Assembly: GCA_963703315.1 (NCBI GenBank)
Contig: OY969811.1
Span: 1,952,001-2,016,000 of the forward strand
From: an uncultured cyanobacterium
GTDB taxonomy: Bacteria; Cyanobacteriota; Cyanobacteriia; Pseudanabaenales; Pseudanabaenaceae
Direction: 5' to 3'
DNA: 64,000 nt
The notes beneath the pieces are model-generated. The model was not told the DNA's origin, did not search any database, and saw only the letters and a list, made by a program, of their open reading frames with translations. The position numbers were made by a program, and so were the translations under genes. This document shows positions 25,341 through 63,226 of this stretch, piece by piece. The first letter of the stretch is position 1. Each line of letters begins with the position of its first letter.

Positions 25341-25400
25341 AGAATTACAGAACTATGGTTGATTTAAGATATAAGTTGATTGATTACAGTACAAAACTTA
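25341..25400 (-). promoter_or_regulatory. Island promoter motif, copy A
   Basis: rc: ATCAATCAA CTTATATC TTAAATCAA ccatagttc TGt AATTCT. Confidence 0.65.
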
Positions 25401-25518
25401 TCTAGACATGAACGATTGCAATGATTTTAGATCATAAGTATCTCAGCATAACTAAAGAGCTTGTAATGCCTGTTTAGCAAGCAATATAAGCTTCTAGATT
25501 TTAAGTTTACTTACGTCT

Positions 25519-25625
25519 AGCTACAAACTGTTGAGGCTTAAAGTAGTCCAGAGAAATTATTAAAAGTGTGGCAAAGTCGTATTTTTAATAATTTCTCTGG
25601 ATTTCAAATCAGCGTAAAGTGCTAT
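25519..25625. repeat. MITE-like palindromic element; same family at 35176-35284, fragment near 38868-38905
   Basis: Shared ends (AGCnCTTTnCGCT..AAAnCCAGAGAA / AAGnCTCAAnAG) around a central hairpin. Confidence 0.55.
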
Positions 25626-25828
25626 GCTTAATGCCCAAATCAAAAGATTAATAGAGATTATTACTCTTATCAAGTTTTGATGCATTCTTATACAACTCAA
25701 ATAACTTAGAGATTTAGATATACATCATCTCAAACATCCCTCGGTTATGGTCTTCTTAGTAAGATCAAAACTTTTAGACACAGCCGTGATAATCGCCTGT
25801 GATAAAAGTTATAGACAGGAGATTCACA

Positions 25829-26899
25829 ATGAGAATAGCCCAAGTTTCACCACTATGGGAACAGGTTCCTCCCCCCGCTTATGGCGGCACTGAACTTGTA
25901 GTCAGTTTACTCACCGAAGAACTAGTCAAGCGTGGTCATGAGGTCACTCTATTTGCTTCGGGAGACTCCACAACTGCTGCCAAATTAGAATCTGTACATC
26001 CCAGAGCTTTACGTTTAGATACTAATGTTACAGATCCAAATATCTACGATATGCTCAATATGAGCCGAGTCTATGAGAATGCGGATCAATTTGATATTAT
26101 TCATTCCCATGTTGGTTGTGTGGCATTACCTTATGCGAATTTAGTCAAAACACCTACAGCTCATACATTACATGGCATCTTCACACCTGACAATGAGAAA
26201 CTATTTACTCATGTACGGAAGCAACCCTTCATCAGTATTTCTAATTCTCAAAGGGATACAAGATTAGGCTTAAACTATGTAGCCACAATTTATAACGGTA
26301 TTGATCCTAATACCTATAGCTTTTATCCTCAGCCAGAACATCCACCGTATCTGGCTTTTTTGGGTCGAATATCGCCTGAAAAGGGAGCGCATTTAGCGAT
26401 CGAGATTGCGAAACGTTCGGGATGGCATCTGAAGATGGCTGGAAAAGTTGACGCTGTGGACGTGGAATATTTTGAAACTCAAATTCGCCCCCATATTGAT
26501 GGCGAACAAATCGAATTCCTCGGTGAAGCTAATCATCAACAAAAAAGTATTCTTATGGGTGGAGCTGTTGCTACGCTCTTCCCAATTACATGGAAGGAAC
26601 CTTTTGGACTGGTGATGATTGAATCAATGGTCACAGGTACGCCTGTAATCGCCATGAGTTTAGGCTCTGCACCTGAAGTGATTGCTCATGGAGTAAGTGG
26701 GTTTCTCTGCCAGAACGTCACTGAATGTGTAGATGCGATCGCCCCTGCTACCCAGTTAGATCGGCGTGCTTGTCGCGATCATGTCCTGATGAATTTCACT
26801 GCGAAACGAATGGCAGATGGCTATGAAGCGGTGTATCAGAAGATTTTGGGAGAGAAATATTCTCGAAATGGACAAAAGCGCGATTTGGTAATGCAATAG
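25829..26899 (+). CDS. Glycosyltransferase family 4
   Basis: MRIAQVSPLWEQVPPPAYGGTE, GRISPEKG, EPFGLVMIES; AGGAG RBS before 25829. Confidence 0.9.
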   Translation: MRIAQVSPLWEQVPPPAYGGTELVVSLLTEELVKRGHEVTLFASGDSTTAAKLESVHPRALRLDTNVTDPNIYDMLNMSRVYENADQFDIIHSHVGCVALPYANLVKTPTAHTLHGIFTPDNEKLFTHVRKQPFISISNSQRDTRLGLNYVATIYNGIDPNTYSFYPQPEHPPYLAFLGRISPEKGAHLAIEIAKRSGWHLKMAGKVDAVDVEYFETQIRPHIDGEQIEFLGEANHQQKSILMGGAVATLFPITWKEPFGLVMIESMVTGTPVIAMSLGSAPEVIAHGVSGFLCQNVTECVDAIAPATQLDRRACRDHVLMNFTAKRMADGYEAVYQKILGEKYSRNGQKRDLVMQ

Positions 26900-27086
26900 C
26901 CCTCACCCCCTATTCCCGTCTCCTAATGGGAGATGGGGCGTAGGAAAATTTTTCCCTTCTCCCATTAGTTGCTCAAGATCCCCCCAGCCCCCCCTTAAAA
27001 AGGGGGGAGAATTATCTTCTTCCCCCTTTTTAAGGGGGATTGAGGGGGATCTACACTCTCAAACATAGATAGAGGAGCTAGAGGAG
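26900..27086. repeat. CCCTCACCCC repeat with a nested GATCCCCC..CCCCTTAAAAAGGGG element (26976-27052)
   Basis: The inner element recurs at 56923-56992. Confidence 0.65.
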
Positions 27087-27126
27087 CTAAAAGAGAGGGA
27101 CTGAATAATAAAAAAGGAGAAATATT

Positions 27127-28422
27127 ATGTTGAGTTTAAATAGACAGGCGATCGCCCTCATTTCTGACCATGCTGATCCTGCGGCGGATGTGGGATGCGA
27201 AGAAGCAGGTGGACAAAATGTATATGTGCGCCATGTGGGCGAAACCCTTGCAGCACTCGGTTGGCAAGTGGATATGTTTACGCGCAAAGTTCATGCTAGT
27301 GATGAGGCGATCGTGCAGCATTCACCGCATTGTCGAACAATCCGACTTAAAGCAGGAGCAGAAGCCTATATTCCTAGAGATAGATTATTTGAACATATGC
27401 CAGAGTTTGTGCATTCATTTCAATCTTTTCAAAGGACTCAGGGCATAAATTATCCCTTAATCCATACAAATTATTGGCTATCGGCTTGGGCTGGGCTGGA
27501 ATTACAAAAAACTAGCGGTATCCAATTGGTGCATACCTATCACTCTTTAGGAGCCGTGAAATATCAAGCTCTGGCGGAGATTCCACAAGTTGCCAATACT
27601 CGTCTCAGGGTTGAGCGAGAGATTTTAGAACGCGCTAATTGTGTGGTGGCAACTAGTCCTCAAGAACAGGAAACTTTGCGATCGCTTGTGTCAACTCGTG
27701 GACAAATTGAAGTTATTCCTTGCGGAACAGATACCAACAACTTTCGGATGACATCAAAGGCTCATGCTCGTAGCAAATTGAAATTAGGTATCCATGAGAA
27801 AGTGATTCTTTATGTTGGTAGATTTGATGAACGGAAAGGGATTGAGACTTTGGTGAGAGCCTTCGCAATCCTAAAGAAACATGATCTGCAAAATCTCAAA
27901 CTGATTATTGTTGGCGGTAGTTCTGCAAATATGCCCGATGGTGATGAGAGGAAAAGAATTGAACATATTGTTTCTGAACTAGGGCTAACCAATGCTACGG
28001 TTTTTGCGGGTCGAATTGGGCATGATATTTTACCGCTTTACTATACTGCGGCTGATGTTTGCGTGATTCCCAGTTACTATGAACCCTTTGGCTTAGTGGC
28101 GATCGAGGCAATGGCTTGTGGTGTGCCTGTGGTTGCCTCGAATGTGGGTGGCTTGAAGTTCACGATCATTCCTGAAGAAACGGGTCTATTAGTTGAGCCA
28201 AAAGATGTCGAAGCTTTTGCTAATGGTATTCATCGGATTCTCTTTGATGAGTTATGGGTGCGAAAAATGCGGAAGCAAGCATCGGCAAATGTGAATCAGC
28301 GATTTAGTTGGGCAGGAGTCACGATTCAACTGAGTGAACTCTATCGTCATGTATTAGCGCGATCGATTATGCATGAACAAGCTTGGAGTTACAAGATGCC
28401 AAGCATCAATAGATCTGCATAG
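27127..28422 (+). CDS. GT4 glycosyltransferase, sucrose-phosphate synthase-like (GT domain only)
   Basis: IALISDHADPAADVGCEEAGGQNVYV, IHTNYWLS, HTYHSLG, GRFDERKG, EPFGLVAIEA. Confidence 0.75.
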   Translation: MLSLNRQAIALISDHADPAADVGCEEAGGQNVYVRHVGETLAALGWQVDMFTRKVHASDEAIVQHSPHCRTIRLKAGAEAYIPRDRLFEHMPEFVHSFQSFQRTQGINYPLIHTNYWLSAWAGLELQKTSGIQLVHTYHSLGAVKYQALAEIPQVANTRLRVEREILERANCVVATSPQEQETLRSLVSTRGQIEVIPCGTDTNNFRMTSKAHARSKLKLGIHEKVILYVGRFDERKGIETLVRAFAILKKHDLQNLKLIIVGGSSANMPDGDERKRIEHIVSELGLTNATVFAGRIGHDILPLYYTAADVCVIPSYYEPFGLVAIEAMACGVPVVASNVGGLKFTIIPEETGLLVEPKDVEAFANGIHRILFDELWVRKMRKQASANVNQRFSWAGVTIQLSELYRHVLARSIMHEQAWSYKMPSINRSA

Positions 28423-28431
28423 AATGAAACC

Positions 28432-28611
28432 GTAGGGGCAGAGCATTCCCACCACAATCTGTAAATCCTAGATAATCTTCTTTTGGGAATGCTCTGCCAA
28501 AACCTCGCAACAGAGGGAAAAATTATCTATAAAAGCACAGAGGGCTGAGCATTTGCGGATCGAGATTTCTGTAACGGGTTCAAATTTGTGACGCAAATGC
28601 TCAGCCCCTAC
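28432..28611. repeat. GTAG-type REP doublet element (REPIN-like)
   Basis: GTAGGGGCAGAGCATTCCC...CAAATGCTCAGCCCCTAC. Confidence 0.75.
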
Positions 28612-28650
28612 GGTCTTAATGCAATAAATCGTGATATTAACAGTAACCCA

Positions 28651-29319
28651 ATGAGAAACAAATTAATATACCGTTTTATTCTATTTTTAGTAGCTTTAAG
28701 CGTATTTACAGGTTGTGCTTTTAGCTTGAATGGAACTAGAGGATCGGGAGTTTTAAAAACTGAGGTTAGAGAAGTGAAGACCTTTTCAACGATCTCTTTT
28801 AAATCTGTTGGCAAGCTCAAAATCCAACAGACAGGTAAAGAATCTCTCACAATTATTGCTGATGAGAATATTTTGCCAATCCTAGAGAGTCGAGTGTCTG
28901 AACAAACCTTGTATATTAACAATGTGAACTCTTCCAGTATTGATCCGACTAATCCCATTGAATTTATTGTCGAAGTGAAGAATCTGGAGAATTTATACAC
29001 TAAGGCAGTTGGTAGTATCGAAGTTAAGGATATTCAAGGAAAAAGGTTATCGATTTCCCTTGATGGTGTCGGTAGTATGGCGATCGCGGGAAATGTGGAT
29101 GTATTGGATCTCAACCTTTCTGGAGTCGGTAACTTTAATGGTGAAGAGTTGAAGGCAAAGCAGGCTACGGTTCGCAATAAAGGTGTAGGCAGTGCGGTGG
29201 TTAATGTGAGTGAGCAGTTAGAGGCATCTGTATCAGGTATAGGAGCGATCGAATATATCGGTTCTCCTCAAGTTCAAGAATCTATGAAAGGAATGGGAGA
29301 GATTAAAAAAAGAAGCTAA
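28651..29319 (+). CDS. GIN-domain (DUF2807) beta-helix lipoprotein
   Basis: Lipobox FTGC; repeated xxGVGxx beta strands; upstream in-frame GTG lies inside the REP element. Confidence 0.85.
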   Translation: MRNKLIYRFILFLVALSVFTGCAFSLNGTRGSGVLKTEVREVKTFSTISFKSVGKLKIQQTGKESLTIIADENILPILESRVSEQTLYINNVNSSSIDPTNPIEFIVEVKNLENLYTKAVGSIEVKDIQGKRLSISLDGVGSMAIAGNVDVLDLNLSGVGNFNGEELKAKQATVRNKGVGSAVVNVSEQLEASVSGIGAIEYIGSPQVQESMKGMGEIKKRS

Positions 29320-29331
29320 CAATAATCTGTT

Positions 29332-29928
29332 ATGAATAAATTAAAACTTTCTGGTCTACTATTCTTTCTTGCTGGCTCATTTGCTTTGATGGGCATCATC
29401 ACTGCCGAAGCATTGTATCCATCAGGCACTGGTTACACAACTTTTCACAGCGAAATCAGCGATCTTGGTGCAACTAGACCGCCCAACAGCATAATCTATC
29501 AGCCGTCTTCGAGCATTTTTAATACCACAATGCTGTTATCTGGGTTAATGACTTTAACCGCAACATTTTATCAGCATAGATATTTCAGAAAATTGCTTGT
29601 CAGCATTCCACTTGGTCTATTTGGTTTGGGTTTGGTGGGTATTGGAATTTTTTCTGGTGACAAAACTCCGTATCATGGAGTGTTTGCAATGCTTACATTT
29701 TTATCTGGTGGATTTTCAGCGATCGCCTCTGCCAAAATTGCTTCAGCACCTTTCAAATATATTGGGATTCTACTTGGTTCAGTTGCATTACTTACTTGGT
29801 TCGCTGCCGTGTTTGTCCCCACCATTATTTTTCCTTATATCGGCATTGGCGGAACAGAAAGATGGATAGTTTATTCACTTGTATTATGGTTAACAGGTTT
29901 AGGTGGTTATTTGATGAATAAACAATAA
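29332..29928 (+). CDS. DUF998-family membrane protein
   Basis: ISDLGA, H in helix 4, GGTER. Confidence 0.8.
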   Translation: MNKLKLSGLLFFLAGSFALMGIITAEALYPSGTGYTTFHSEISDLGATRPPNSIIYQPSSSIFNTTMLLSGLMTLTATFYQHRYFRKLLVSIPLGLFGLGLVGIGIFSGDKTPYHGVFAMLTFLSGGFSAIASAKIASAPFKYIGILLGSVALLTWFAAVFVPTIIFPYIGIGGTERWIVYSLVLWLTGLGGYLMNKQ

Positions 29929-29943
29929 TTCAAAAATAAAACA

Positions 29944-32190: not shown

Positions 32191-32202
32191 AATTTGAATT
32201 TA

Positions 32203-32273
32203 GTTATATTTTGTATCATAATTAATTAATTCAATCAACTTATTCATGAAGTCATGCGATCGCCTGTCACAAT
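32203..32273 (+). promoter_or_regulatory. Island promoter motif, copy C
   Basis: TTCAATCAA CTTATTCA TGAAGTCAT gcgatcgcc TGt CACAAT. Confidence 0.7.
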
Positions 32274-32342: not shown

Positions 32343-32510
32343 ATGGAAAGTGAAACCAAATTAACACTAATTAAAATTATTCAAACGACAATTTGGATAT
32401 TCTTTGATTTTGTGATTTTCTATATGCTTTATGCAGCGATCACAAGTAAATTTGATATCTGGCTCTGGAATTATTTCGGATTACTATATTTTAAAATCAC
32501 AAAAACATGA
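32343..32510 (+). pseudogene. 55-codon ORF, probably a truncated membrane-protein gene
   Basis: MESETKLTLIKIIQTTIWIFFDFVIFYMLYAAITSKFDIWLW...; stop overlaps the next ATG. Confidence 0.45.
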
Positions 32511-33148
32511 ATAAAACAGTACATAAAGTTGGGTTTTGGTCAGGACTTACTGCATTTATTTCAACACTTGCATTTACTGTTGTTCAGATGCTACAGCTTT
32601 TTGGTGTTCTCAATTATCCATTGGATGAAATTTTAATTTATGGATTCTCTCTTTGCATAGTAATACCTTTCTTGCTAGAAATGCTTGCCCTTCACTATGT
32701 AGCTCCAACCGAAAAAAAGTTTTGGAGTCATGCAGCTCTTATTTTTACAGTCTTGTATGTGGCATTCGTTACGGCTAATTATGTCGTTCAACTAGCAACG
32801 GTAATTCCGATGACACTGCAAGGAACTTCAGACGAGATTCTGATTCTAAAACAAACTCCGCACTCTCTCTTTTGGGACTTTGATGCGATCGGATATATAT
32901 TTATGGGATTCGCAACCTTATTTGCTGTTCCTATATTTGAGAAGCAGGGATTTCAAAGGTGGGTTAGATACTCTTTCTTGGTTCATAGTCTGGTTACACC
33001 TTTGATTGTATTTGTCTACTTCTATCCAAACTTTTCGGAGAAGCTACTTCTTATTGGAATTCCTTGGGGAATTACAGCGCCTTTGTCAATGTTGCTACTT
33101 GCCGTAATGTTCAAGAAAGATTCTGAAGTAAGCACTCAAACAATATGA
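32507..33148 (+). CDS. Hypothetical multi-pass membrane protein
   Basis: About six hydrophobic helices. Confidence 0.75.
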   Translation: MNKTVHKVGFWSGLTAFISTLAFTVVQMLQLFGVLNYPLDEILIYGFSLCIVIPFLLEMLALHYVAPTEKKFWSHAALIFTVLYVAFVTANYVVQLATVIPMTLQGTSDEILILKQTPHSLFWDFDAIGYIFMGFATLFAVPIFEKQGFQRWVRYSFLVHSLVTPLIVFVYFYPNFSEKLLLIGIPWGITAPLSMLLLAVMFKKDSEVSTQTI

Positions 33149-34044
33149 AAACTTCAAATCTGGTTATCTGGCTGTCATCTCTAATTGTCGTATTAGCATT
33201 AATCGCCGCTAGTCTCGGCTTGTTCTGGCAAGATGGGGGCAATTCGTTCTCTTTTACCACGCTCCGAGGAGACACTGTATCGATCGCTGGAAGAGGCTTT
33301 TACAAATACGATACGACGCTAATGGCGATGGGTTTTAAAGCAGGTGATGCGGTAACGCTGATTTTGGGTATCCCCGCGCTGATCTTCTCTCTTTTACGCT
33401 ATCAGCGTGAATCTGTGCGAGGTGGTTTGTTGTTGGCGGGTACGCTAAATTATTTTCTTTACAACTATGGCTCAATGGCGTTTGGCGCAGCTTACAACCA
33501 TCTATTTCTCATCTATGTCGCACTGATGTCGGTCAGTTTGTTTGCGCTAATCCAGACGTTAATGTCCTTTGATTTGGCGATATTACCTGTCCACTTTTCT
33601 GCTCACCTGCCGCGCCGCAATATTGGAATTTACTTGATTCTGTCTGGAGTGGCGCTGCTGTTAATCTGGCTAATTTTAAGCATTATCCCCGCACTAATCG
33701 AGGGCAAAGCACCGATGGAAGTGTGGAGCTATACCACCGTAATTACCTATGCGATCGATATGGGTATTGTTGCACCTGCGCTAATTGTCACTGGGATAAT
33801 GTTACTACGCCGCAACCCTCTGGGATACTTGCTTACAGCCACGCTGCTAGTGTTTACAGTGATTCTCGGAACCAATCTGCTGACTGCTGGTACGTTCCAA
33901 GTGTTAGCAGGCTTAATCGACATTCGACAGTTTATCGGATTCGTGGCTTCCTTCGCGATCCTGACACTGTATGCAATCTGGTTTACATTGGCATTTTTCC
34001 GTAACCTTTCAGAGCGAATCTCTCCACAAACTGCTCATCTTTAA
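33145..34044 (+). CDS. Hypothetical multi-pass membrane protein
   Basis: About eight helices; ATGA-coupled. Confidence 0.8.
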   Translation: MKTSNLVIWLSSLIVVLALIAASLGLFWQDGGNSFSFTTLRGDTVSIAGRGFYKYDTTLMAMGFKAGDAVTLILGIPALIFSLLRYQRESVRGGLLLAGTLNYFLYNYGSMAFGAAYNHLFLIYVALMSVSLFALIQTLMSFDLAILPVHFSAHLPRRNIGIYLILSGVALLLIWLILSIIPALIEGKAPMEVWSYTTVITYAIDMGIVAPALIVTGIMLLRRNPLGYLLTATLLVFTVILGTNLLTAGTFQVLAGLIDIRQFIGFVASFAILTLYAIWFTLAFFRNLSERISPQTAHL

Positions 34045-36705: not shown

Positions 36706-36767
36706 GTTACATTTTGTCGCGTAATCAATCAATTCATTCACGAAATCAAGCGATCGCCTGTCACAAT
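36706..36767 (+). promoter_or_regulatory. Island promoter motif, copy D
   Basis: ATCAATCAA TTCATTCA CGAAATCAA gcgatcgcc TGt CACAAT. Confidence 0.7.
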
Positions 36768-38985: not shown

Positions 38986-39047
38986 ATTACATTTTGTAGT
39001 GTATTCAATCAACTCATGCACGAAGTCAAGCGATCGCCTGTCATAGT
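38986..39047 (+). promoter_or_regulatory. Island promoter motif, copy E
   Basis: TTCAATCAA CTCATGCA CGAAGTCAA gcgatcgcc TGt CATAGT. Confidence 0.7.
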
Positions 39048-40083: not shown

Positions 40084-42357
40084 ATGTCTAACATAAATGA
40101 CCTCAATCTAATTGAACCCGTTGCGATTGAAGTCGGGGGTAGGACTTTTATTCCTGTTGATCAAAATCAAATTTCACCTTGGGTTTGCCTCATTAGTGAA
40201 CATCCCATCTCAACACTGACCCTCAAAGATGATGATTTATTCTTGATTACCGATACTTTGGGCAATATTTCTGACCTTAGCTGCCGCATTGGTGGTATTG
40301 AGGACAGTATGGGCTTATTTTGTCGGGATACGCGATTTCTAAGTCGTCTAGAGTTACAAATTGATCGGCGATCGCCAATTTCGTTTAGTAGCACTGCCCA
40401 TAAAGGTTTTGCGATGACAGTTTTATGTTCTAATCCAGAGATTAATGATCAAGATGGTAAACAAATCAAATCGGAAACCATTGGCATCCATCGCGAAATT
40501 TTGATCAAGGGTGGATTGTTTGAAGAGATGCAAGTCACTAATTACAATACGCATCCTATTAGTTTTACGCTGAGTCTGAGTTTTGATGCGGATTTTTTAG
40601 ATGTATTTGAAGTACGAGGATCTAAGCGCGAAAAAAGAGGGATTTTATTAAGTTACCTACCTGAACCAGCCAAAAATTCGGCGGAACTTTTATTTAAAGA
40701 AATAGTGCTTGCCTATGAGGGATTAGATGGAGCTTTAATGGAGTCACGGATTCAATTTAATGCCCGTCAACCCGATGAAATTCTTGGCTATACCGCAGTT
40801 TGGCAACTGAATTTAGCAGCCCATGAAGCGATCGCTTTAGGATATCGGATTCATTTGTTTACAGATAACCATCCTACTTCTGTCGTTAGTGTTCCCGATA
40901 CATTTTCTCAGGCAAAAGCAGAAGAGTTATTGGAAGAGAAGCTATGGATGGATCAAATCACGAGGATTCAGACGGATAATAAATCTCTAAATGAGGTGAT
41001 TGATCGCGCTGTACAGGATATTTATTTGCTACGGCAGACATCAGAAAAGAATAACTTCCTTTCGGCAGGAGTACCTTGGTTTTCGACTTTGTTTGGTCGA
41101 GATTCAATTATTTCGGCTTCTCAAACTCTCGTTTTAGATCCGATGATTGCCCGTGATACGCTGCTGATTTTGGCACATTTTCAAGGAAAGGTAGATAACG
41201 AATGGCGCGATGAGCAGAAAGGCAAAATCCTCCATGAAATTAGGCTTGGTGAAATGGCACGATGTCATGAAGTTCCTCATGATCCTTACTATGGAACCGT
41301 TGATGCAACACCACTTTGGTTAATGCTCTACGCCGAATATTTTGCATGGACGGCTGACCAAACAACGCTAGATCAGCTATGGGCAAATGCCATCTCAGCG
41401 ATGTCTTGGATCGATCGCAACTCCAAGGAAACTGGCTATCTAAGCTATCAAAGAACTTCAGCGAAAGGTTTGGTTAATCAGGGATGGAAGGATTCTGATA
41501 ATTGTATTGTGAATCGCAATGGTGAACTAGCGAAAGGTGCTATTTCTTTATGCGAAGTGCAAGGCTATGTCTATGCTGCCAAAATTCGCATGAGTGAGTT
41601 AGCCGAGAGAAAGCAGTTGTTTGACCTTGCCGAACTTTGGCGATCGCAGGCAAAAGATTTAAAAACTCGCTTTAATCAAGATTTTTGGCTTCCTGATCAA
41701 GACTTTTGCGCTCTGGCTCTGGATGGCGATGGTAAACCCGTTGACAGTATTACTTCTAACCCTGGACATTGTTTGCACCTCGGCATTTTTGATCATGAAA
41801 AGGTTCTCAGTGTATCGGCCCGTTTAAATGAGCCTGATATGTTTAATGGCTGGGGAGTACGGACACTCAGCAATCTCTCTCCTGCCTATAATCCGATGGG
41901 CTATCACATTGGTTCCGTTTGGCCTCATGATAATAGTCTGATTGCCTTGGGTATGCGATCGCAAAGTCTGGTTAAGCAATCATTGCGAATTGCTCAAGGC
42001 TTGATTGATATGACAATCTCCCAGCCATATCATCGACCACCTGAACTATTTTGCGGCTATGAGCATGATGGATTTACTTCGCCAGTCCAATATCCTGTCG
42101 CCTGTTCTCCGCAAGCTTGGGCAACGGGAACGATCTTCCAATTAATTTCGATTATGGTTAATTTTGTGCCTGATGCTAACAATAACCAACTTCACATTAT
42201 CGATCCCTGTTTACTAAATTCTATTAATCGTCTCTCGATTCAGAATTTGCGAATTGGACAGACATTGCTAGATTTGGAGTTTGAACGCTATGGCGACACT
42301 ACCGCCTGTCGAGTCAACAAAAAACGTGGCAATCTCCGCGTGATTATTGAGGCATAA
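40084..42357 (+). CDS. Amylo-alpha-1,6-glucosidase / glycogen-debranching family protein
   Basis: DTRFLS, AGVPWFSTLFGRDS, GKILHE, NQGWKDS, YHIGSVWPHDN, ACSPQAWA. Confidence 0.9.
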   Translation: MSNINDLNLIEPVAIEVGGRTFIPVDQNQISPWVCLISEHPISTLTLKDDDLFLITDTLGNISDLSCRIGGIEDSMGLFCRDTRFLSRLELQIDRRSPISFSSTAHKGFAMTVLCSNPEINDQDGKQIKSETIGIHREILIKGGLFEEMQVTNYNTHPISFTLSLSFDADFLDVFEVRGSKREKRGILLSYLPEPAKNSAELLFKEIVLAYEGLDGALMESRIQFNARQPDEILGYTAVWQLNLAAHEAIALGYRIHLFTDNHPTSVVSVPDTFSQAKAEELLEEKLWMDQITRIQTDNKSLNEVIDRAVQDIYLLRQTSEKNNFLSAGVPWFSTLFGRDSIISASQTLVLDPMIARDTLLILAHFQGKVDNEWRDEQKGKILHEIRLGEMARCHEVPHDPYYGTVDATPLWLMLYAEYFAWTADQTTLDQLWANAISAMSWIDRNSKETGYLSYQRTSAKGLVNQGWKDSDNCIVNRNGELAKGAISLCEVQGYVYAAKIRMSELAERKQLFDLAELWRSQAKDLKTRFNQDFWLPDQDFCALALDGDGKPVDSITSNPGHCLHLGIFDHEKVLSVSARLNEPDMFNGWGVRTLSNLSPAYNPMGYHIGSVWPHDNSLIALGMRSQSLVKQSLRIAQGLIDMTISQPYHRPPELFCGYEHDGFTSPVQYPVACSPQAWATGTIFQLISIMVNFVPDANNNQLHIIDPCLLNSINRLSIQNLRIGQTLLDLEFERYGDTTACRVNKKRGNLRVIIEA

Positions 42358-44156: not shown

Positions 44157-44594
44157 TTAGCTTGCTTGTTGATATTCAATTTGCTGGGACTGACTATCAT
44201 ATCGAGCGGTTAAAATCAGCTTTTTGTCAGGGGCATAGACAAAAACTGTTAAGTCTTGATTGGGAAAATTGTGCCTAAAGCCTTGAGTCAAAGATTGAGC
44301 TAAAGTTTTCACTTCTGTCGGTCGAACTTCAGATGAAATCACGACTCCTAACTTGTTGCGATCGCGCATATAAGCATCCTTAATCAAACCTTTACTAGTT
44401 TTAAGCACCCAATTACTAAAATCTTGCTCTGTGGAAGAGTTACCTTGAGCTAACTGACTGTATTCTGAACCTTGATTGGTTTTTACTAGATTAGAAGATT
44501 GAGTTTGCGAAGATTCACAAGCAGTTGTAAAGGTCAAAATTAGCATCAGAGCCAACATTCCTAAAATCTTCCGAGCTTGGTAAAACATATTCAT
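44157..44594 (-). CDS. Hypothetical lipoprotein
   Basis: Lipobox TTAC; NFPNQDLTVFVYAPDK. Confidence 0.75.
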   Translation of the reverse strand: MNMFYQARKILGMLALMLILTFTTACESSQTQSSNLVKTNQGSEYSQLAQGNSSTEQDFSNWVLKTSKGLIKDAYMRDRNKLGVVISSEVRPTEVKTLAQSLTQGFRHNFPNQDLTVFVYAPDKKLILTARYDSQSQQIEYQQAS

Positions 44595-46141: not shown

Positions 46142-46235
46142 ATTCTGACAGATAGATGTTTGAAATCATGTATATCGAGATATTGAAGAATGTCTTTATT
46201 GATTGACTTGTATGGGAATGTCGTAAATCTTTATC
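46142..46235 (-). promoter_or_regulatory. Island promoter motif, copy F (degenerate 5' half)
   Basis: rc: GATATACA TGATTTCAA acatctatc TGt CAGAAT. Confidence 0.45.
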
Positions 46236-48844: not shown

Positions 48845-49027
48845 CTAATCAATAACTTTTTTGACTTCATCTTTGACATCTTCAGCAGCGTGGCGTACTT
48901 TAGCTTCAGCTTGTTTTGCCTTGCCTTCTACCTGATTTTTAGTGTCACCAGTCACATCTCCGACAGCTTCTTGCACTTTGCCTTCAACATTTTTAGCAGT
49001 TGCCTTAGCTCTATTTTCTAAACTCAT
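48845..49027 (-). CDS. csbD: CsbD-family stress protein
   Basis: KNVEGKVQEAVGDVTGD...EGKAKQ; AAGGAG RBS. Confidence 0.9.
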   Translation of the reverse strand: MSLENRAKATAKNVEGKVQEAVGDVTGDTKNQVEGKAKQAEAKVRHAAEDVKDEVKKVID

Positions 49028-49095: not shown

Positions 49096-49166
49096 ACGAT
49101 GACAGGCAAACATTTGATTTCTTGAATGAATTGTTTAAATTGATTGAATACAATACAAATCGTAAT
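49096..49166 (-). promoter_or_regulatory. Island promoter motif, copy G
   Basis: rc: TTCAATCAA TTTAAACAA TTCATTCA AGAAATCAA atgtttgcc TGt CATCGT. Confidence 0.7.
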
Positions 49167-49270: not shown

Positions 49271-49531
49271 CTAATTATTAGTCCAGTGCCAAGCATCAAC
49301 AGACTTACGGGCGCTATCTGCAAAATCGTTAGCATCGTGACGGACTGGCACTCTAGGATCGCGATCGCTACCATTAGACCAGTACCAAGCATCGATAGAA
49401 TTATGAACGCTATTTGTAAAATCGTCAGTATCATGACGAATTGGCATTCTAGGATCACCAGTTGGATTCCTGACTGATTCTTGAATTTGACCTTTGATAT
49501 CTTTTTCCTTGTCGCTATTTTCTAAACTCAT
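49271..49531 (-). CDS. Diverged CsbD paralog with an internal 32-aa duplication
   Basis: MSLEN...KGQIQESV..PTGD; 96-nt-period repeat at 49280-49360 and 49376-49456. Confidence 0.55.
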   Translation of the reverse strand: MSLENSDKEKDIKGQIQESVRNPTGDPRMPIRHDTDDFTNSVHNSIDAWYWSNGSDRDPRVPVRHDANDFADSARKSVDAWHWTNN

Positions 49532-49666: not shown

Positions 49667-49737
49667 ACTGTGACAAGCGAATATTTCATTTCCTGATTGA
49701 ATTGATTGAATTGATTGAATGAAATACAAATCTTAAT
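49667..49737 (-). promoter_or_regulatory. Island promoter motif, copy H
   Basis: rc: TTCAATCAA TTCAATCAA TTCAATCA GGAAATGAA atattcgct TGt CACAGT. Confidence 0.7.
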
Positions 49738-49953
49738 TAATGCCAAATCCAATTTAAGTAGCTGGGCGCAATTAAATATAAAACCAGAGCAAAACCTATG
49801 GCGCACGCTGCGCGTGCGCCATAGGTTTTTGCTCTGGTTTTTAGATAGTTAAGATTGGCGACGCTTTGCGCCACCAATCTCATAAAAACAAATGAAGGCG
49901 GTGCTTTGCACCACTTTCATTTGTTTGGGTTTGCAAAACTTGAATTGCTATAA

Positions 49954-51287: not shown

Positions 51288-51350
51288 ATATTTACAGATA
51301 GCTGTATGATTTTGTGTATAAGTTGATGGAATAATATATGAATCTTTATC
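51288..51350 (-). promoter_or_regulatory. Island promoter motif, copy I
   Basis: rc: TTCCATCAA CTTATACA CAAAATCAT acagctatc TGt AAATAT. Confidence 0.6.
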
Positions 51351-54402: not shown

Positions 54403-54465
54403 ACGATCGCAGAAGCATGATTGATCTAAGATGTGAATTGGTTAAATACAGTACAAAACTTATCT
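54403..54465 (-). promoter_or_regulatory. Island promoter motif, copy J
   Basis: rc: TAGATAAGTTTTGTACTGTA (shared with copy A) TTTAACCAA TTCACATC TTAGATCAA tcatgcttc TGc GATCGT. Confidence 0.65.
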
Positions 54466-56278: not shown

Positions 56279-56338
56279 CTGACCTTTTCCTTATAAATCA
56301 ACAAAATAGAGAAGTGGCGCAAAGCGCCACTTCTCTAT

Positions 56339-56875
56339 TTAAACTCCCACAGTTTTTTTATTCATCTCTGGTTTTGAGCCATTGGATTCCACAGCTTCAC
56401 CTTCAATGAAAGAACGTAGCATCCATGCAATCTCTTCATGCTGTTCCATCAAACCTGTGAGAAAGTCGGCGGTTCCATCATCTTTAAACTTGTCGCCACA
56501 TTTATCAATGTCTCCTCGCAAATTTCGCACTACTTTTTCGTGATCTTCTAGCAATTGCGATACCATGCCTGTTGCGGTCGGAACCTTTCCAGCATTTTCC
56601 TTGAGTGAGCAGATTTTCAGAAATCCTTCCATTGTGCCGACAGGATAGCCTCCGAGCATTCTGATTCGCTCAGCGATCGCATCGACATTGAGGGTGAGAG
56701 CTTCATAATGTGCTTGCCAGAGTTTATGCAAGGTCATAAATTGAGGACCAACGACATCCCAATGATATTTTTTGGTTTTGACTAGCAGCAAATAGCTGTC
56801 TGCTAGGTCGTTGTTGAGGATGTCGATTACGCCTTGTCGTTGGGTATCGGTTAGTCCAATATTGATTGTCTTCAT
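56339..56875 (-). CDS. dps: Dps-family DNA-binding ferritin-like protein
   Basis: HWDVVGPQF..LH, DAIAER, HEEIAWML. Confidence 0.92.
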   Translation of the reverse strand: MKTINIGLTDTQRQGVIDILNNDLADSYLLLVKTKKYHWDVVGPQFMTLHKLWQAHYEALTLNVDAIAERIRMLGGYPVGTMEGFLKICSLKENAGKVPTATGMVSQLLEDHEKVVRNLRGDIDKCGDKFKDDGTADFLTGLMEQHEEIAWMLRSFIEGEAVESNGSKPEMNKKTVGV

Positions 56876-56922
56876 AATAAATTTCCTTGGATTAATGAAT
56901 GGTGTTGGTTAAAAACTCTAAG

Positions 56923-56992: not shown

Positions 56993-57014
56993 AGAGCAAT
57001 TCTTAAATCGGTTC

Positions 57015-57212: not shown

Positions 57213-57321
57213 TTTTGACTCTAAGTTCCTAAATATAAAAATGGTTTTAGAAGAGCATAATAAGCGGCGCAAAGCGCCGCCCATTATGCTCACTACATAA
57301 TGGATGTAGCGATCGCAAAAG

Positions 57322-58056: not shown

Positions 58057-58096
58057 CGACTGTTCATTTATGAATTATTTCAGTTGTATATTGCCT

Positions 58097-58156
58097 AATT
58101 TGACATGACAATGATTGACTTCATGAATGAATTGATTGAGTCTACATAAGCTTAAT
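58097..58156 (-). promoter_or_regulatory. Island promoter motif, copy K
   Basis: rc: CTCAATCAA TTCATTCA TGAAGTCAA tcattgtca TGt CAAATT. Confidence 0.7.
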
Positions 58157-58248
58157 AGCAGCTTAAGGATTGAGAAGTATCAAATATTTGTGTTCAAACC
58201 TAAAAGCTTGTGCCACCCACTAAGCGGGTGACACAAGCTTCTATCTAC

Positions 58249-59970
58249 TTAAGCAGGTAAGGTGTAACGTTTTTCGATCGCGGTTTTAATGCGATCGCGA
58301 CTATCGTTAGGGGACAGATCTGGAGATGTTTCGATCTCGCTGACTTCAGCCGCTAAGGATTTATCCTTAATCGAGTTTTGCAACCACTTTGAGTAATCTT
58401 GCAGATGTAAATGATGTAGCCAAGTGCGATCATCTACGCCTTCAGCAAGTTGCATAAACATGATCAGGTTTTGCGCTTTAAGATTTAATTGGTTATCTTC
58501 ACCTCTAAAAAAGAAACAGCGATCGCTACCCAAGTTTCCTTCAGCATAGTTCCGCATATGCCGTTGGCGTTCTTGCAGAGGACGGATTACTTCAAATTGA
58601 AATGGCTGATCTTCAGTTTTGATAAACCAAGCCACTCCCGATCCTGAAGCCAGTTCTAAAGGAAGTGGCTCCTTAGGTATCTGATGTCCTACCGTGTTGC
58701 AAAAATCTGTAAAAGTCTGCATTGGTGACTTCACAGCAATCAATGTGTCAATCAAAGATAAAGCAGAGGTGGCTACGTGTTCAGGATGAACCGTTACCAT
58801 GAGAACACCATTGACTGATTGTGGCAAAGTTACCGATGCGTCCCAAGAAGATGGGAACATATGATGCACTTCATCAATGACAATCCAATGTGGTCGCCCA
58901 GTCCGCACCCGCATTTCTAATAGAGAAGGTAGTAGTTGCGCGAGAAATAACGGGCGATCATCAATTTTCACTCCCATTAAATTGACGATCAGATTTTGCT
59001 CTGGCTTACTTAAAACCGTTAACACTTCTGCGGAACTAGGAATCTGTTGAGCATTTCCTAAAATCACAGTCCGATCAAAGCTTTGATAATCTCCTTCGGG
59101 ATCAATAATACAAACCTGATAGCCCTTATCGATAAATCTTTCGATTAATCCTGTCGCTAAAGTTGATTTACCACCACCAGAGATTCCCGCCAGCAAAATA
59201 TTGCGGTTAAGGGGCTGAATATAGGTTTCGCGATCGCCTTCGAGATTACCCAAGACAATGCGATGTCGATCTGGCAAAATGGAAGACTCGCGCAGATCTT
59301 CGGTCAAATCTAGGGTTAACAATCTCTCAATTAATTCGATTACGCCATCACCGCGACTTGCTTCAGTCACCCAATCCACTTCACTCTTGACCGATGGTAG
59401 GGCGTTGGCAACGGCAACAGAAAACTCACATAGTTTTAGAAAAGCTAGATCATTCTCGGCATCACCGACTGCTACCGTATTACGGACAGATAAGCCCATT
59501 TTGTCGAGGGCTGCGCTTAGCCCTGAAGCCTTGTTAACTCCTGCGGGCAGAACCATTACCGCGCCTTTGTTAAAGATCACCTGTAGATCTAATCCCAGTT
59601 CTCTAATTACGGTAAGTACTTGGGTTTCGTTGGGTTCCCATGTTGCCACGATTACTTTACCGACCGAGAGGGGATCGATACTACGCGATCGCAAAGCATT
59701 GATAAATTTCTCAGGGGGTAACTCACCGAGCAGTAATTCTTCGCGAGTGGTAGGAAAGTAAATTACGGCTCCATTTTCAGCAACAACGCAATCGAATAGG
59801 CTAGTCTCAGGAAAGACTGCGATCAGATCTTCAAGTTGTCTACCTGTCACTAAGATCAGCTTGCGTCCTGATTTTTGGAGTCGCTTGAGAGCATCGAGAG
59901 TTGCCTCTGATACCTTTCCATCCTTCGCTAAGGTTCCATCGTAATCCGTGGCTAATATGAGATAATGCAT
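58249..59970 (-). CDS. HAD-IIB phosphatase fused to a HerA/DUF87-like P-loop domain
   Basis: DYDGTL, VTGR, GDAEND; then GISGGGKST, IIDPEGDY, IVIDEVH. Confidence 0.85.
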   Translation of the reverse strand: MHYLILATDYDGTLAKDGKVSEATLDALKRLQKSGRKLILVTGRQLEDLIAVFPETSLFDCVVAENGAVIYFPTTREELLLGELPPEKFINALRSRSIDPLSVGKVIVATWEPNETQVLTVIRELGLDLQVIFNKGAVMVLPAGVNKASGLSAALDKMGLSVRNTVAVGDAENDLAFLKLCEFSVAVANALPSVKSEVDWVTEASRGDGVIELIERLLTLDLTEDLRESSILPDRHRIVLGNLEGDRETYIQPLNRNILLAGISGGGKSTLATGLIERFIDKGYQVCIIDPEGDYQSFDRTVILGNAQQIPSSAEVLTVLSKPEQNLIVNLMGVKIDDRPLFLAQLLPSLLEMRVRTGRPHWIVIDEVHHMFPSSWDASVTLPQSVNGVLMVTVHPEHVATSALSLIDTLIAVKSPMQTFTDFCNTVGHQIPKEPLPLELASGSGVAWFIKTEDQPFQFEVIRPLQERQRHMRNYAEGNLGSDRCFFFRGEDNQLNLKAQNLIMFMQLAEGVDDRTWLHHLHLQDYSKWLQNSIKDKSLAAEVSEIETSPDLSPNDSRDRIKTAIEKRYTLPA

Positions 59971-59979
59971 GAATTTAAA

Positions 59980-61386
59980 TTAATTTAAGGCAGCTTTGCC
60001 AGATTCAGGAGCGCGTAAATCATCTAGAGATAGGTTTGGAGTTTCTGTATAAACTGAGTCAAGTAAGACTTCTAAGACATCAGCATCACGGGAAATGGCG
60101 ATCGCCTGATGCGTGATTAATTCGCCAACATTGAGAATCACCTCATCATTGCGATCGAGGATAACGCGAGTGACAGGACGACCTAAAGCACCCTTAATTC
60201 TTCGATCTTCAATTGCTTGAGTGCCATGATCTTGGAGATTACTAGCAGTTTCCTTAACCTGCTCCCATAATCCTTTAGCACCGTCCTTAACCTGTTGCCC
60301 AACATTGGAACCAGTAACTCTCAAAGCATCACCTGTAGTTAGACCCACTGCTTCTAATAAAGCTTGTTCTTGATGATGAGTTTTTGCTCTTTCAAGTACT
60401 TTTGGAGTCACAATTTGACCTTCTACTGCCACAACTGAACCTTCAGGTGTGAAAATCATCTTGTTCACTCGCCGACCTTGCGCTTGCTCAAGTCCAATAT
60501 TTGCACCCATACCTGTCACCGCCCCTGTCAATTTTTCTCCTAACTTAGCAGTGGCACTTCCTCCTGCTGCATGATAGAGATCATTGGTCATATTCAGGTT
60601 CCGAGCTGCCAAGATATGTGATGAATTCACAACCTTTCCTTCCTGAATTAAAGTTATGCCATCGGTAGTTTCTACAGTTTTTTGAGCAACTTTTCCTAAT
60701 ACAAAAGTCTCTTGTTCTTCAGGATCAACAACCGCATTAGTAAAGCTAGTACCTGCAAATGTCGTCGCTTCTTGAAACTTATCGCCTGTGAATTGGGCAG
60801 CTTCTTGAGCTTTCTCACCTGTAAACTGAGCCATTTCCTGCACTTTGCCACCTGCCGTTTGCATAGCTCCTCTAATGCCACCAACTTGTTCTTGCATCAA
60901 GTCAGCAGTTTCCGAAGGCACAAAGGCAATATCTTCACCAATCTTCAGGGTGTCAGGAGCAGGCACAAAGGAACGCCCAGAATAAGCATCGGCAAAGATG
61001 CCGCCCGATACTTCATACCCTTCGATCGCACCAGTAGTGTCATCAAAATAAAGGTCAAGCATTGTTCCCAAATCACGACCATCAAGGGTCATAATTCTTG
61101 TGCCTTTCAAGATATTATCTCTTTCTAAAATACTTTGCATTGCAGGAAATTCTTGAGCCGAGGCGATCGCCTCTCTAGAAGCGACAATGACGGCATCAGC
61201 ACCGATCGCCTGAATATTTGTTAAAGGCAGTACCAATGCATTACTAAACCAACCACCTTCATCCACAAGAAAGCCTAATAATTGATTACTCTCTTGATCA
61301 AAAATCAAGTCTACAATTGTTCTAAATTCTTCCCCAGAGTCATAAGCAACTATAGGTTTCCCAATCATCCCTTTACCGTTACGCAT
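59980..61386 (-). CDS. PRC-barrel domain protein
   Basis: Two PRC barrels (IGKPIV..DSGE, IGADAVIV; KGTRIMTLDGRDLG), helical linker, repeated G..I...G..IT motifs. Confidence 0.85.
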   Translation of the reverse strand: MRNGKGMIGKPIVAYDSGEEFRTIVDLIFDQESNQLLGFLVDEGGWFSNALVLPLTNIQAIGADAVIVASREAIASAQEFPAMQSILERDNILKGTRIMTLDGRDLGTMLDLYFDDTTGAIEGYEVSGGIFADAYSGRSFVPAPDTLKIGEDIAFVPSETADLMQEQVGGIRGAMQTAGGKVQEMAQFTGEKAQEAAQFTGDKFQEATTFAGTSFTNAVVDPEEQETFVLGKVAQKTVETTDGITLIQEGKVVNSSHILAARNLNMTNDLYHAAGGSATAKLGEKLTGAVTGMGANIGLEQAQGRRVNKMIFTPEGSVVAVEGQIVTPKVLERAKTHHQEQALLEAVGLTTGDALRVTGSNVGQQVKDGAKGLWEQVKETASNLQDHGTQAIEDRRIKGALGRPVTRVILDRNDEVILNVGELITHQAIAISRDADVLEVLLDSVYTETPNLSLDDLRAPESGKAALN

Positions 61387-61417
61387 TTCATTCTCCTAAA
61401 TTTGGTGAAAGTCAACC

Positions 61418-61612
61418 TTAATTGACTGCTTTGTTATTAGTTTTTACAGGTTGGCTAGTAGAGGTATTTCTTACTTCAGTCTCTTTGCCAAAATTAGGAA
61501 CAAGATCAATTACTCCAAAGTATTCCAATGCGACGAATCCAGCCGCAGCTACCAACATAGCCACGCCAGTATATAAAGCCGAATTACTTTTCTTTCCTAC
61601 AAGTCTGGGCAT
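61418..61612 (-). CDS. Small single-helix membrane protein
   Basis: MPRLVGKK...ALEYFGVIDLVPNFG; paralog at 62345-62512. Confidence 0.75.
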   Translation of the reverse strand: MPRLVGKKSNSALYTGVAMLVAAAGFVALEYFGVIDLVPNFGKETEVRNTSTSQPVKTNNKAVN

Positions 61613-61670
61613 ATATTTTTCCTCGCAAGTTATTGTCACATAGAGAAATTCCAAACTTCTCTATGTCCAT

Positions 61671-61749
61671 ACCATTACAGAAGAGTGTTTAGTTTTTTGA
61701 GTGATTTGATTGAATTGATTTACTATGCAATAAAGTGTTACAAAACTTA
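61671..61749 (-). promoter_or_regulatory. Island promoter motif, copy L
   Basis: rc: TTCAATCAA ATCACTCA AAAAACTAA acactcttc TGt AATGGT. Confidence 0.6.
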
Positions 61750-61819
61750 CTTCTATTCATACCCAAGAACAGATGAGGTGCTTTGCACCTCATCTGTTCT
61801 TGGGCTTCACTATCTATGA

Positions 61820-62305
61820 TTACGGTGTTGTTAGAACGGCTTGTAGTTTTGCCTCATCTTCATTAGATAAAGAAGTTTTCAGGACTTTGCCCTTAAATCT
61901 ACTGAGATCTTCTAATACTTTGTCAGGAGTAGCTCTTCTCACCAGTACAAAAATAGCCGAGGTGTTAGGTTCAATCGTACTGCCCACTTCGCGGATAAAG
62001 TTATCATCGATTCCAATATCTGACAATGCTCCAGAAATCCCGCCCGCGATCGCGCCAACTGCCCAACCCAAAAGAGGATTAAAAAAGATGAAACCAAATA
62101 GTAAACCCCAAAAACCTCCACTTAAGGCTCCAGCAGTGGTCAGTTCCTGAGTCTGTTTAATCTTTACTTTTCCGTCCTTATCTCTAATCACGACGGCGGC
62201 ATCTTCTAAATCAATTAGATGCTCTTTTTGAAGCTTTCGGAGTTCCAGTAAAACTGCGTCAGCAGTGAATTCATCTTTAAAGCCAACAGCAATTAGACTA
62301 CTCAT
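61820..62305 (-). CDS. DUF1269-family membrane protein
   Basis: LIDLEDAAVV, GALSGGFWGLLFG glycine zipper, DIGIDDNF. Confidence 0.9.
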   Translation of the reverse strand: MSSLIAVGFKDEFTADAVLLELRKLQKEHLIDLEDAAVVIRDKDGKVKIKQTQELTTAGALSGGFWGLLFGFIFFNPLLGWAVGAIAGGISGALSDIGIDDNFIREVGSTIEPNTSAIFVLVRRATPDKVLEDLSRFKGKVLKTSLSNEDEAKLQAVLTTP

Positions 62306-62344
62306 TCATTTCTCCAGTTATAACTTTTTAATTGATTAGATTGG

Positions 62345-62512
62345 TTATTTTCGATAGGTTTGGCTAGTAGAAACTTCAGGTTTCTGTCCAAAATCATAAA
62401 TCAAGTCAACCACTCCAAAATACTCCAAGGCTATAGCTCCAGCCGCAGCTATAAGCAAACTAAAGCCAAGATATACAGTAGAATTGTTTCTCTTTCCGAC
62501 AAGTCTAGACAT
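62345..62512 (-). CDS. Small single-helix membrane protein
   Basis: MSRLVGKR...ALEYFGVVDLIYDFG; AAGGA RBS. Confidence 0.7.
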   Translation of the reverse strand: MSRLVGKRNNSTVYLGFSLLIAAAGAIALEYFGVVDLIYDFGQKPEVSTSQTYRK

Positions 62513-62638
62513 TATGTTTCCTTGCAATCAATACTTGCCTGAAGAACTCTATAGCTTTCGCCATTTGTATTAGGAAAAATCAAAATCCTAGAAGAGAGTG
62601 GCAGCGCTTCGCGCTGCCACTCTCTTCTGGTTTTATAT

Positions 62639-63115
62639 TTAGGATTTAACTTTGTTTTTGATGGATTTAGCAGTGTCAGATGCTTTATCAGTTAAAGATT
62701 TAAGAGCATCGCCAGCCTTGTCTTTTACATAATTAGCTGCATCACCAGCCTTGTCTAAAGTGTCATCTTTAGCAGAGTTCATCTTGTCACTAGCTTTATC
62801 AAAAGCTTTTTCTACCTGCTTCACAACAGGTGGTGTATCTTCATTAGAACTTCGCTTCATTTTGTCAAAATCAGAGGTTCCTTGAATCTCATTTAGACCT
62901 TGATTTGATACATCATCAGACGTATATTCCTGATTTGTATCGTAAGTACTGCCCTTTACTGCATCTTCAGCTTTTTTCTGAATGTTAGGCATAGTCAGGT
63001 TGTCAATGATTTGATTGTCCTGAGATGCGATCGCTGGAGCAATGTTAGCAAAAGCAATTAACCCACAGACAACAATCATGACTACAAATCGCTTCAGAAA
63101 TTGAGTAAGCTTCAT
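62639..63115 (-). CDS. Exported hydrophilic LEA-like protein
   Basis: GGAGG RBS, signal peptide (AIA), GLNEIQG motif, 11-mer DKAGDA repeats. Confidence 0.7.
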   Translation of the reverse strand: MKLTQFLKRFVVMIVVCGLIAFANIAPAIASQDNQIIDNLTMPNIQKKAEDAVKGSTYDTNQEYTSDDVSNQGLNEIQGTSDFDKMKRSSNEDTPPVVKQVEKAFDKASDKMNSAKDDTLDKAGDAANYVKDKAGDALKSLTDKASDTAKSIKNKVKS

Positions 63116-63164
63116 AGAATTTCCTCCTAATTTAATTAATAATTGGAAATTGTTTCCTACAAAC

Positions 63165-63226
63165 ACAATTGCAAATCAATGTTTGATTTTGAGAATGAGT
63201 TGATTGATTACGAAATAAACTGTAAT
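63165..63226 (-). promoter_or_regulatory. Island promoter motif, copy M
   Basis: rc: ATCAATCAA CTCATTCT CAAAATCAA acattgatt TGc AATTGT. Confidence 0.65.

Follow-up and report, generated by a model that had tools for sequence, protein, structure and literature searches.

A repeated element in a stress-gene island

We analysed a stretch of 64,000 nucleotides, referred to here as the window, from the genome of an uncultured cyanobacterium of the Pseudanabaenaceae (contig OY969811.1, positions 1,952,001 to 2,016,000; the whole genome, of 4,565,174 bases, is designated G000). The right part of the window, from position 24760 to 64000, is occupied by an island of stress-related genes that continues past the window's end to about G000:C1:2027600, and a 60-nucleotide element recurs in front of these genes. 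The element is built of three phased 9-mers in direct repeat (AAnTCAwnC), followed at a fixed distance by a -10-like hexamer, xANNNT. Here we describe the element, its targets and a protein encoded in the same island that is predicted to read it.

Between about 24.7 kb and G000:2027600, the island encodes CsbD, Dps, manganese catalase, Pmp3, YggT, BON, YflT, DUF1269, DUF6335, PRC-barrel, Hli, GT4 and glycogen-debranching proteins, families known as markers of general stress. The part past the window's right end includes the manganese catalase, YflT and BON genes as well as a gene for hemerythrin. Its GC content is 0.404, compared with 0.422 for the genome, and homologous cassettes were found on plasmids.

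The majority of the elements in the window are full copies. On the plus strand these lie at 32214-32273 (predicted transcription start 32280), before the membrane-protein genes at 32507-34044; at 36708-36767 (start 36774), before a DUF6920/DUF6544 gene and a ferric-reductase-like oxidoreductase gene; and at 38988-39047 (start 39054), before a DUF6920 gene and the gene for a glycogen-debranching-type enzyme (40084-42357). Minus-strand copies precede the gene for a 167-residue secreted hypothetical protein (24760-25263; copy 25341-25400, start 25334); csbD (49096-49155, start 49089), which encodes a 60-residue CsbD-family general stress protein (48845-49027, minus strand; Pfam PF05532, E 3e-16); an 86-residue open reading frame (ORF; 49271-49531; copy 49667-49726, start 49660); the genes for YggT and a fatty-acid hydroxylase/sterol desaturase (51288-51347, start 51281); and a DUF6335 gene with the run that follows it (54403-54462, start 54396). 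Further minus-strand copies precede the genes for a 244-residue exported protein, rubredoxin and Dps (58097-58156, start 58090), the Dps/ferritin-like gene (56339-56875, minus strand; Pfam PF00210) presumably belonging to the 58090 transcript; a small ORF with the genes for a PRC-barrel protein (59980-61386) and a HAD phosphatase (58249-59970; copy 61671-61730, start 61664); and the genes for a hydrophilic protein resembling late embryogenesis abundant (LEA) proteins (ending at 62639) and a DUF1269 protein (63165-63224, start 63158). Two places carry a variant: 25717-25751 (plus strand), which has only the last 9-mer and the -10 hexamer and precedes two GT4 glycosyltransferase genes (25799-28422), and 46142-46201 (minus strand), before a run (46133-43118) encoding Pmp3, a holin-like protein with four transmembrane segments and small hydrophilic proteins. 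Four diverged copies, picked by eye, lie to the right of the window before genes for manganese catalase, a LEA-like protein, hemerythrin and YflT.

Both csbD loci of G000 sit downstream of a box. The second boxed locus (G000:C1:4301359-4304540) contains csbD, double-csbD and transglycosylase-associated genes and a divergent alpha-amylase gene. Within the island, two paralogous small ORFs on the minus strand, 62345-62512 and 61418-61654, encode 55 and, counted from ATG, about 64 residues with a hydrophobic stretch, and a member of this family is the first gene behind a box in three loci. Long perfect GC-cored hairpins, resembling terminators or repetitive extragenic palindromes, recur between genes along the island (62588-62630, 49791-49829, 63535-63575 and 56304-56340).

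Anatomy and distribution of the element

The first-pass annotation had listed 13 copies of a fixed-spacing promoter motif. The feature that it described is present at all 13 positions, with xANNNT at a fixed distance in each and TG before the hexamer in 12, although as a set the 13 divide into 11 full copies and a separate variant, represented by its two "partials" at 25717 and 46142. These two places scored -22 and -15 bits with the main matrix, below background. They have in common a 22-nucleotide sequence in which the last box and the -10 hexamer are preserved and which was found nowhere else in the genome at up to three mismatches. The first-pass annotation's statement that every copy is intergenic needs a qualification, as the copies at 39004 and 58140 lie inside long stop-to-stop frames, yet upstream of the likely ATG.

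A matrix built from the 11 window copies recovered, in the whole genome, those 11 and two further sites, of which G000:4303000 was strong and 1807008 weak. A second matrix, built only from 67 sites of other genomes, found 13 places above 14 bits in G000, including all 11 full copies of the window (23-69 bits), G000:4303000 (55 bits) and G000:1807008 (22 bits); the last is a probable chance match because it lies inside a coding frame. The reversed form of this foreign-site matrix gave no match in the 4.57-Mb genome. A 27-nucleotide pattern allowing up to three mismatches matched nine times in the window and never in 100 shuffles, and, as the first-pass annotation had noted, the first 24 kb contain no copy. 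The survey of genome and relatives that it had proposed found the concentration in the island that it expected and was positive in relatives too: of 24 genomes from the same genus, 18 contain the pattern, with no reversed-control match, and it is also present in several other families. Viral contigs gave one exact match, which lies antisense within a helicase gene and was treated as chance. A generic σ70 scan of 45-64 kb was uninformative (42 sites compared with 47.5 expected).

Across 76 sites, the three 9-mers read TAWTCAATC, AAYTCATTC and AAATCAAAC, with starts 9 and 12 nucleotides apart and a weak T-rich box further upstream. The first-pass annotation had given a fixed spacer of 9 nucleotides before the TG; as the last box (AARTCAAAC) reaches a conserved C, the fixed distance from box to hexamer is 10 nucleotides. 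The TG, in turn, is secondary across genomes (57-67% conserved, compared with 96-97% for the A at -11 and the T at -7). In 67 sites chosen on the boxes alone, probable false positives included, the A was present in 88%, the T in 90% and the closing C in 94%; these loci were not selected by any -10 pattern, except that some had been selected with TG. A later set of 97 sites, partly circular in that some loci came from a full-length model, had A(-11) and T(-7) jointly in 92, compared with 1-13 in shifted frames. The first base of the hexamer (-12) was C in 69% and T in 19% of these sites, and the TG positions were T in 67% and G in 57%. No -35 hexamer is evident at these promoters. With the conserved A set to -11, the three boxes start at -52, -43 and -31. 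The weak box upstream of them then starts at -65, where 5 of 68 copies have an AAGTT-like sequence.

A sense ORF starts within 300 nucleotides of 85 of the 97 sites (median 71), compared with 22 for the opposite flank, and eight of the 97 sites lie inside a frame of at least 150 residues. That the element acts as RNA (a leader or the site of an RNA-binding protein), or is a small mobile repeat with no regulatory role, is highly improbable. Its simple TCAA repeats would suit such a role, as would the existence of near-identical cassettes among the copies, 9 of 68 of which have in common a HIP1 site within the spacer. The fixed A and T at -11 and -7, the free spacer columns, the strict orientation and the conservation across families nevertheless argue against it, as do the near lack of predicted fold (mean -2.5 kcal/mol), the lack of any Rfam match (the window held no Rfam family and no tRNA) and the location of transcription starts downstream of the homologous boxes of XssQ described below.

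A candidate HTH-NACHT regulator

The first-pass annotation saw no obvious cognate regulator in the part of the island inside the window. A candidate lies 6.8 kb beyond the window's end and still in the island, where G000:C1:2022795-2025110 (plus strand) encodes a 771-residue protein of the XssQ family with an XRE-type helix-turn-helix (HTH) head, a NACHT module and an NCH2 C-terminus. We consider it likely that the element is the operator of this protein and that the protein activates the weak promoters concerned. The NACHT and NCH2 domains were matched in Pfam (E 4e-17 and 8e-29) and the Walker A and B motifs are intact. The structural model (predicted local distance difference test score, 79) has a fold like those of NLRC4 and NOD2, with matches at E 1e-12, and its head, which aligns with that of XssQ, is a confident helical bundle for which XRE/Cro proteins are the best fold matches, at a probability of about 0.9. 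The protein belongs to a clade, found in 53 of 122 cyanobacterial genomes and with named members in Pseudanabaena, Nostoc, Calothrix, Microcystis and Chroococcidiopsis, whose members carry only the source names "NACHT" or "hypothetical". The recognition helix, KTRQP[IV]WRF, is near-invariant across the clade. In a tree of 25 rows, with long branches flagged, the clade had a support of 100/100, and the clade, XssQ and three XssQ-like proteins were separated from six other paralogs at 100/100; a quick tree of 52 rows agreed. G000 itself has seven NACHT-protein matches. According to the available parts of PMC12267927 and PMC4192349, respectively, four XssQ homologs of Anabaena sp. PCC 7120 are possible regulators and one is a HetR target. 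Synechococcus elongatus PCC 7942, in contrast, lacks a homolog of XssQ.

Comparison of the gene with the motif revealed that they occur together. Among the 122 cyanobacterial genomes, 50 had both, three only the gene, three only the motif and 66 neither, where an ortholog was required to have at least 54% identity over the gene (fragments were counted in G004 and G138) and the motif a best E of at most 1e-5 with model R1; the sample included a hand-picked subset of 80 genomes and, in one part, at most 13 scored candidates per genome. In the 83 genomes that contributed no training site, the motif was present in 13 of 15 with the gene, compared with 2 of 68 without it, and it was present in 2 of 25 genomes holding only other paralogs. 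Physical linkage is a stronger argument than this profile. A 770-residue gene, of which G000:2022795-2025110 is the ortholog, adjoins sites in four of nine distant loci inspected. Of the 27 genomes of the 80-genome subset, outside the genus, that were positive for both, 13 have a site within 200 nucleotides of the gene end (25-143 nucleotides behind the gene), 18 have one within 2 kb and 21 within 10 kb. Three of four named plasmids with the gene carry sites. No site was found in 394 kb around 20 paralogs.

These results bear on the possibility that a chromosomal stress regulator, of the OrrA/Rre1 type or a group 2 sigma factor, reads the boxes and that the HTH-NACHT gene is a mere passenger of the island. 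The target classes speak for it, because, in the available text of PMC9804601, dps, manganese catalase, hli, avaK (a PRC-barrel type) and sugar-metabolism genes depend on OrrA, a two-component response regulator of Anabaena 7120; no OrrA binding motif appeared in that text. Target classes also overlap for NfSrr1 of Nostoc flagelliforme, which acts with a light sensor (PMC11962455). Three genomes with a site and no HTH-NACHT gene fit it as well. Even so, the motif is missing in 66 of the 69 genomes without the clade, close relatives included, the sites immediately behind the HTH-NACHT gene in 13 genomes are hard to reconcile with it, and the box resembles that of XssQ in sequence and position, unlike the NfSrr1 motif. 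Passenger status for the gene is consequently unlikely, although OrrA may operate at an earlier step and the -10 contact may come from a group 2 sigma factor. Since the motif tracks a single clade of regulators, group 2 sigma factors on their own, an alternative already raised in the first-pass annotation, are less likely. The NfSrr1 motif was also considered as the identity of the box and rejected, the motif given in the available part of PMC11962455 being unrelated.

Several observations weigh against the HTH-NACHT protein as the reader of the boxes. The XRE/Cro fold matches of its head are weak singly (E 0.08-0.5), and its HTH had no match in Pfam or NCBIfam. The genomes of the profile are related and do not count as independent cases, and pattern matches were over-represented in the 80-genome set. 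The gene being part of the island, co-occurrence could also partly reflect co-transfer. In 2 of the 27 double positives the nearest listed site is more than 700 kb away, and in 4 it is found only on another contig. Three genomes (G006, G089 and G134) have the motif without the gene, the G006 site being the orthologous csbD locus, kept without the NACHT gene; three others (G037, G042 and G304) have the gene without the motif at the threshold used, G037 and G042 having weaker sites beside the gene; and on plasmid L118 the gene is present without any site. One of the XssQ boxes used for comparison below, the -31 box of xssE, is our own reading and departs from the published consensus. Lastly, a second G000 protein carries the same recognition helix. 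This protein, encoded at G000:C1:2852960-2853963 (minus strand) convergently with a GAF-LuxR gene, is a fusion of an XRE head with the C-terminal part of an acetate-kinase domain.

As a metabolite sensor, the fusion could be the main reader of the boxes in G000. Its helix, KTRQPIWRFF, is identical, and it is present in G006, which has the csbD site and no NACHT gene, and in G003. It occurs in only 8 of 48 genomes, however, all of its own genus, is missing from the motif-rich G013, G016 and G023 and from other genera, and has no site near its gene in G000, which makes this role very unlikely; the fusion is more likely a derived competitor or co-regulator. The fusion was also seen in loci L187, L198, L183 and L181.

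Other features were noted at the loci of the clade. Tandem, C-terminally shortened and fast-evolving additional copies of the regulator adjoin the full gene at L179:6780-11621 and L189:4203-6368. At L130:4030-4530, L062:8597-9136 and 14 more places, the regulator gene is followed by a box and then immediately by a single-domain receiver, mostly with Glu in place of the phospho-accepting Asp. A receiver with this Glu stands behind the box in many Nostocales, and a tblastn search gave no close match to this pseudo-receiver in G000.

Within the window, the regulators outside the island, an OmpR-type regulator (4252-4986) and a PadR protein (17520-17864), lie in an efflux region without boxes, where an OmpR-type two-component system, HlyD and AcrB/CzcA-type efflux genes occupy 4252-6320, 13151-14707 and 18515-21637. 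The same part of the window encodes, on the plus strand, a 2168-residue protein with long helical repeats and a C-terminal KAP-family NTPase (6473-12979) and a barnase-like ribonuclease with its barstar (15633-16329).

An XssQ-like promoter geometry and a proposed portable stress regulon

Comparison with known boxes suggested a relative of the element. None of the NtcA, FNR, LexA, Fur, HLR1 and Pho boxes fits it in a by-eye comparison with their consensus sequences, and a box ending 10 nucleotides before the -10 hexamer is also the arrangement of pho boxes. The first-pass annotation had not recognised the motif, finding no match to the NtcA, Fur, LexA or Pho boxes and only a half resemblance of its upstream part to HLR1. 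The element is nevertheless related to a known box, as a variant of that of XssQ (Slr5058) of Synechocystis sp. PCC 6803. In the available text of PMC8205485, XssQ is described as an activator of sulfated-polysaccharide genes that belongs to the STAND class (signal transduction ATPases with numerous domains), has an N-terminal HTH and, in electrophoretic mobility shift assays, binds single or tandem AAGTTnnAC.

XssQ and the candidate have the same XRE-HTH-NACHT architecture and are 35% identical over their full length. Both go with an asymmetric 9-bp box in direct repeats, and both have been found on plasmids, XssQ on pSYSM. In both, a proximal box at -31 ends 10 nucleotides before a non-consensus xANNNT, the starts being measured for XssQ targets and predicted here. 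At five published starts (from the available part of PMC4195498), XssQ boxes begin at -66/-65, -55/-54 and -31, and xANNNT with C, A or G first occupies -12 to -7 in four of the five promoters, the fifth being one base off. The geometry of the clade, applied to pSYSM, predicted starts at 44333, 52510 and 41348, a prediction made before the table was opened and written down afterwards; those published in the same part of PMC4195498 are 44333, 52510 and 41347.

The two systems also differ. The candidate belongs to a separate clade, with the recognition helix KTRQPIWRF where XssQ has STRNSVWKF, and its box is AAnTCAwnC in three phased copies rather than AAGTTnnAC, AARTCAAAC being a one- or two-base variant; the clade's motif model found no site on pSYSM. 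The targets here are general-stress genes, not sulfated-polysaccharide genes. The clade is also without an XssR/XssS partner: full-length XssR (REC-GAF) homologs were found only in L207, L209, L216 and L217, beside other paralogs, and none was among the top G000 matches or beside the clade in the loci examined. Around 20 paralog genes, a search for XssQ-type boxes gave one triple tandem (L200) and one plausible site (L199), otherwise only scattered or coding matches. The tandem, at L200:4636-4670 (minus strand), has three XssQ-type boxes with a period of 13 and lies about 4.4 kb from an XssQ-like gene.

The position of the boxes also bears on the direction of control. If the HTH-NACHT protein were a repressor released by stress, its -31 box would block polymerase, and both the overlap of the last box with the -35/spacer region and the frequency of XRE heads among repressors are compatible with this. 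XssQ, on the other hand, activates from the same position, the bare promoter, with its weak -10 (C in 69% at -12) and no evident -35, should be poor, and strict phasing to the -10 is what would be expected of activators; repression is therefore quite unlikely. Activation by the HTH-NACHT protein agrees with the promoter reading of the first-pass annotation, weak promoters served by one activator. Such an activator, placed there at about -50 to -25 and here at about -52 to -23, is consistent with all of the evidence and now has a predicted cognate candidate.

MalT, GutR and AfsR-type STAND activators oligomerise on arrays of asymmetric direct repeats, activating promoters. They have in common with the candidate a STAND ATPase joined to a DNA-binding domain and differ in STAND subclass and domain order, the candidate's XRE head lying N-terminal to a NACHT module that is followed by an all-helical NCH2 C-terminus. 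Antiphage bNACHT proteins, as presented in the available part of bioRxiv 10.1101/2022.07.19.500537, likewise have a NACHT module of the NLR (nucleotide-binding, leucine-rich-repeat) type, and cyanobacteria are rich in paralogs, whereas the effector of the candidate is a DNA-binding head and its neighbours are stress genes and promoter boxes, not defence genes. A comparison of the candidate with EruA gave a weak partial match far below the cut-off.

From these comparisons we infer the following mechanism. A stress signal would cause the NACHT module to exchange ADP for ATP and oligomerise, as has been proposed for XssQ and is established for STAND proteins. The oligomer would present several XRE heads to the boxes at about -52, -43 and -31, and to the weaker box at about -65 that is like those of XssQ. 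A -35 element would be replaced by the -31 box, and the bound protein would bring RNA polymerase to a -10 in which the first base is mostly not the consensus T. The regulator gene and its boxes would travel as a cassette on plasmids and islands, capturing different cargo, which in Pseudanabaena-like genomes would be a full set of general-stress and desiccation genes. A further target in many Nostocales would be the adjoining pseudo-receiver gene, whose product is a candidate feedback partner.

The cargo is varied across genomes. Among the annotated first genes behind 103 of 116 sites, the commonest encode single-domain receivers (16), CsbD-like proteins (15) and LEA-like proteins (8); others include an AvaK-like PRC-DUF2382 protein, and none encodes a sulfotransferase. 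Clade members at L116, L117, L185 and L186 have other cargo and slightly different boxes: genes for acyl-CoA desaturase, orange carotenoid protein, NblA, Hli, FtsH, allophycocyanin-like and fasciclin proteins, which suggests a cold/high-light regulon. According to the available text of PMC9804601, dps, katB, hli and avaK are induced by salt and dehydration in Anabaena 7120. The boxed genes are likely to be switched on together, probably during drying or salt stress.

We found no description of the motif, the clade, or the operator with its stress regulon in the literature, in a search that lacked most subscription papers, nor of an HTH-NACHT/box system in the available parts of surveys on NACHT/STAND proteins of bacteria. 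The usual reading of bacterial NACHT proteins is that they sense phages for defence, and XssQ is the only one that we found in the literature as a shown transcription factor. The island is probably a mobile stress regulon of the XssQ kind, run by an NLR-like protein. A second and widespread NACHT clade thereby gains a stress regulon with a specific predicted operator and predicted transcription starts, protein and DNA being named.

To our knowledge, no general stress switch like sigma-B has been described in cyanobacteria. It is quite possible, though somewhat less likely than not, that cyanobacteria have a portable general-stress and desiccation programme with an NLR-like NACHT protein as its master switch. 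Such a protein would be a one-gene stand-in for a response of the sigma-B/sigma-S type. It would need no cognate kinase and would form oligomers on three or four phased repeats, and either a pseudo-receiver that it induces itself or an HTH-acetate-kinase decoy would adjust its activity. Plasmids would carry it from one order to another, and whichever genes gain the 60-bp promoter cassette would be rewired. The helix-to-box relationship suggests a recognition code for other paralogs, and the pair of protein and promoter suggests an orthogonal activator-promoter system for cyanobacterial engineering. For cyanobacteria themselves, the system would provide a handle on the co-induction of csbD, dps and catalase-type genes and on the spread of tolerance by plasmids.

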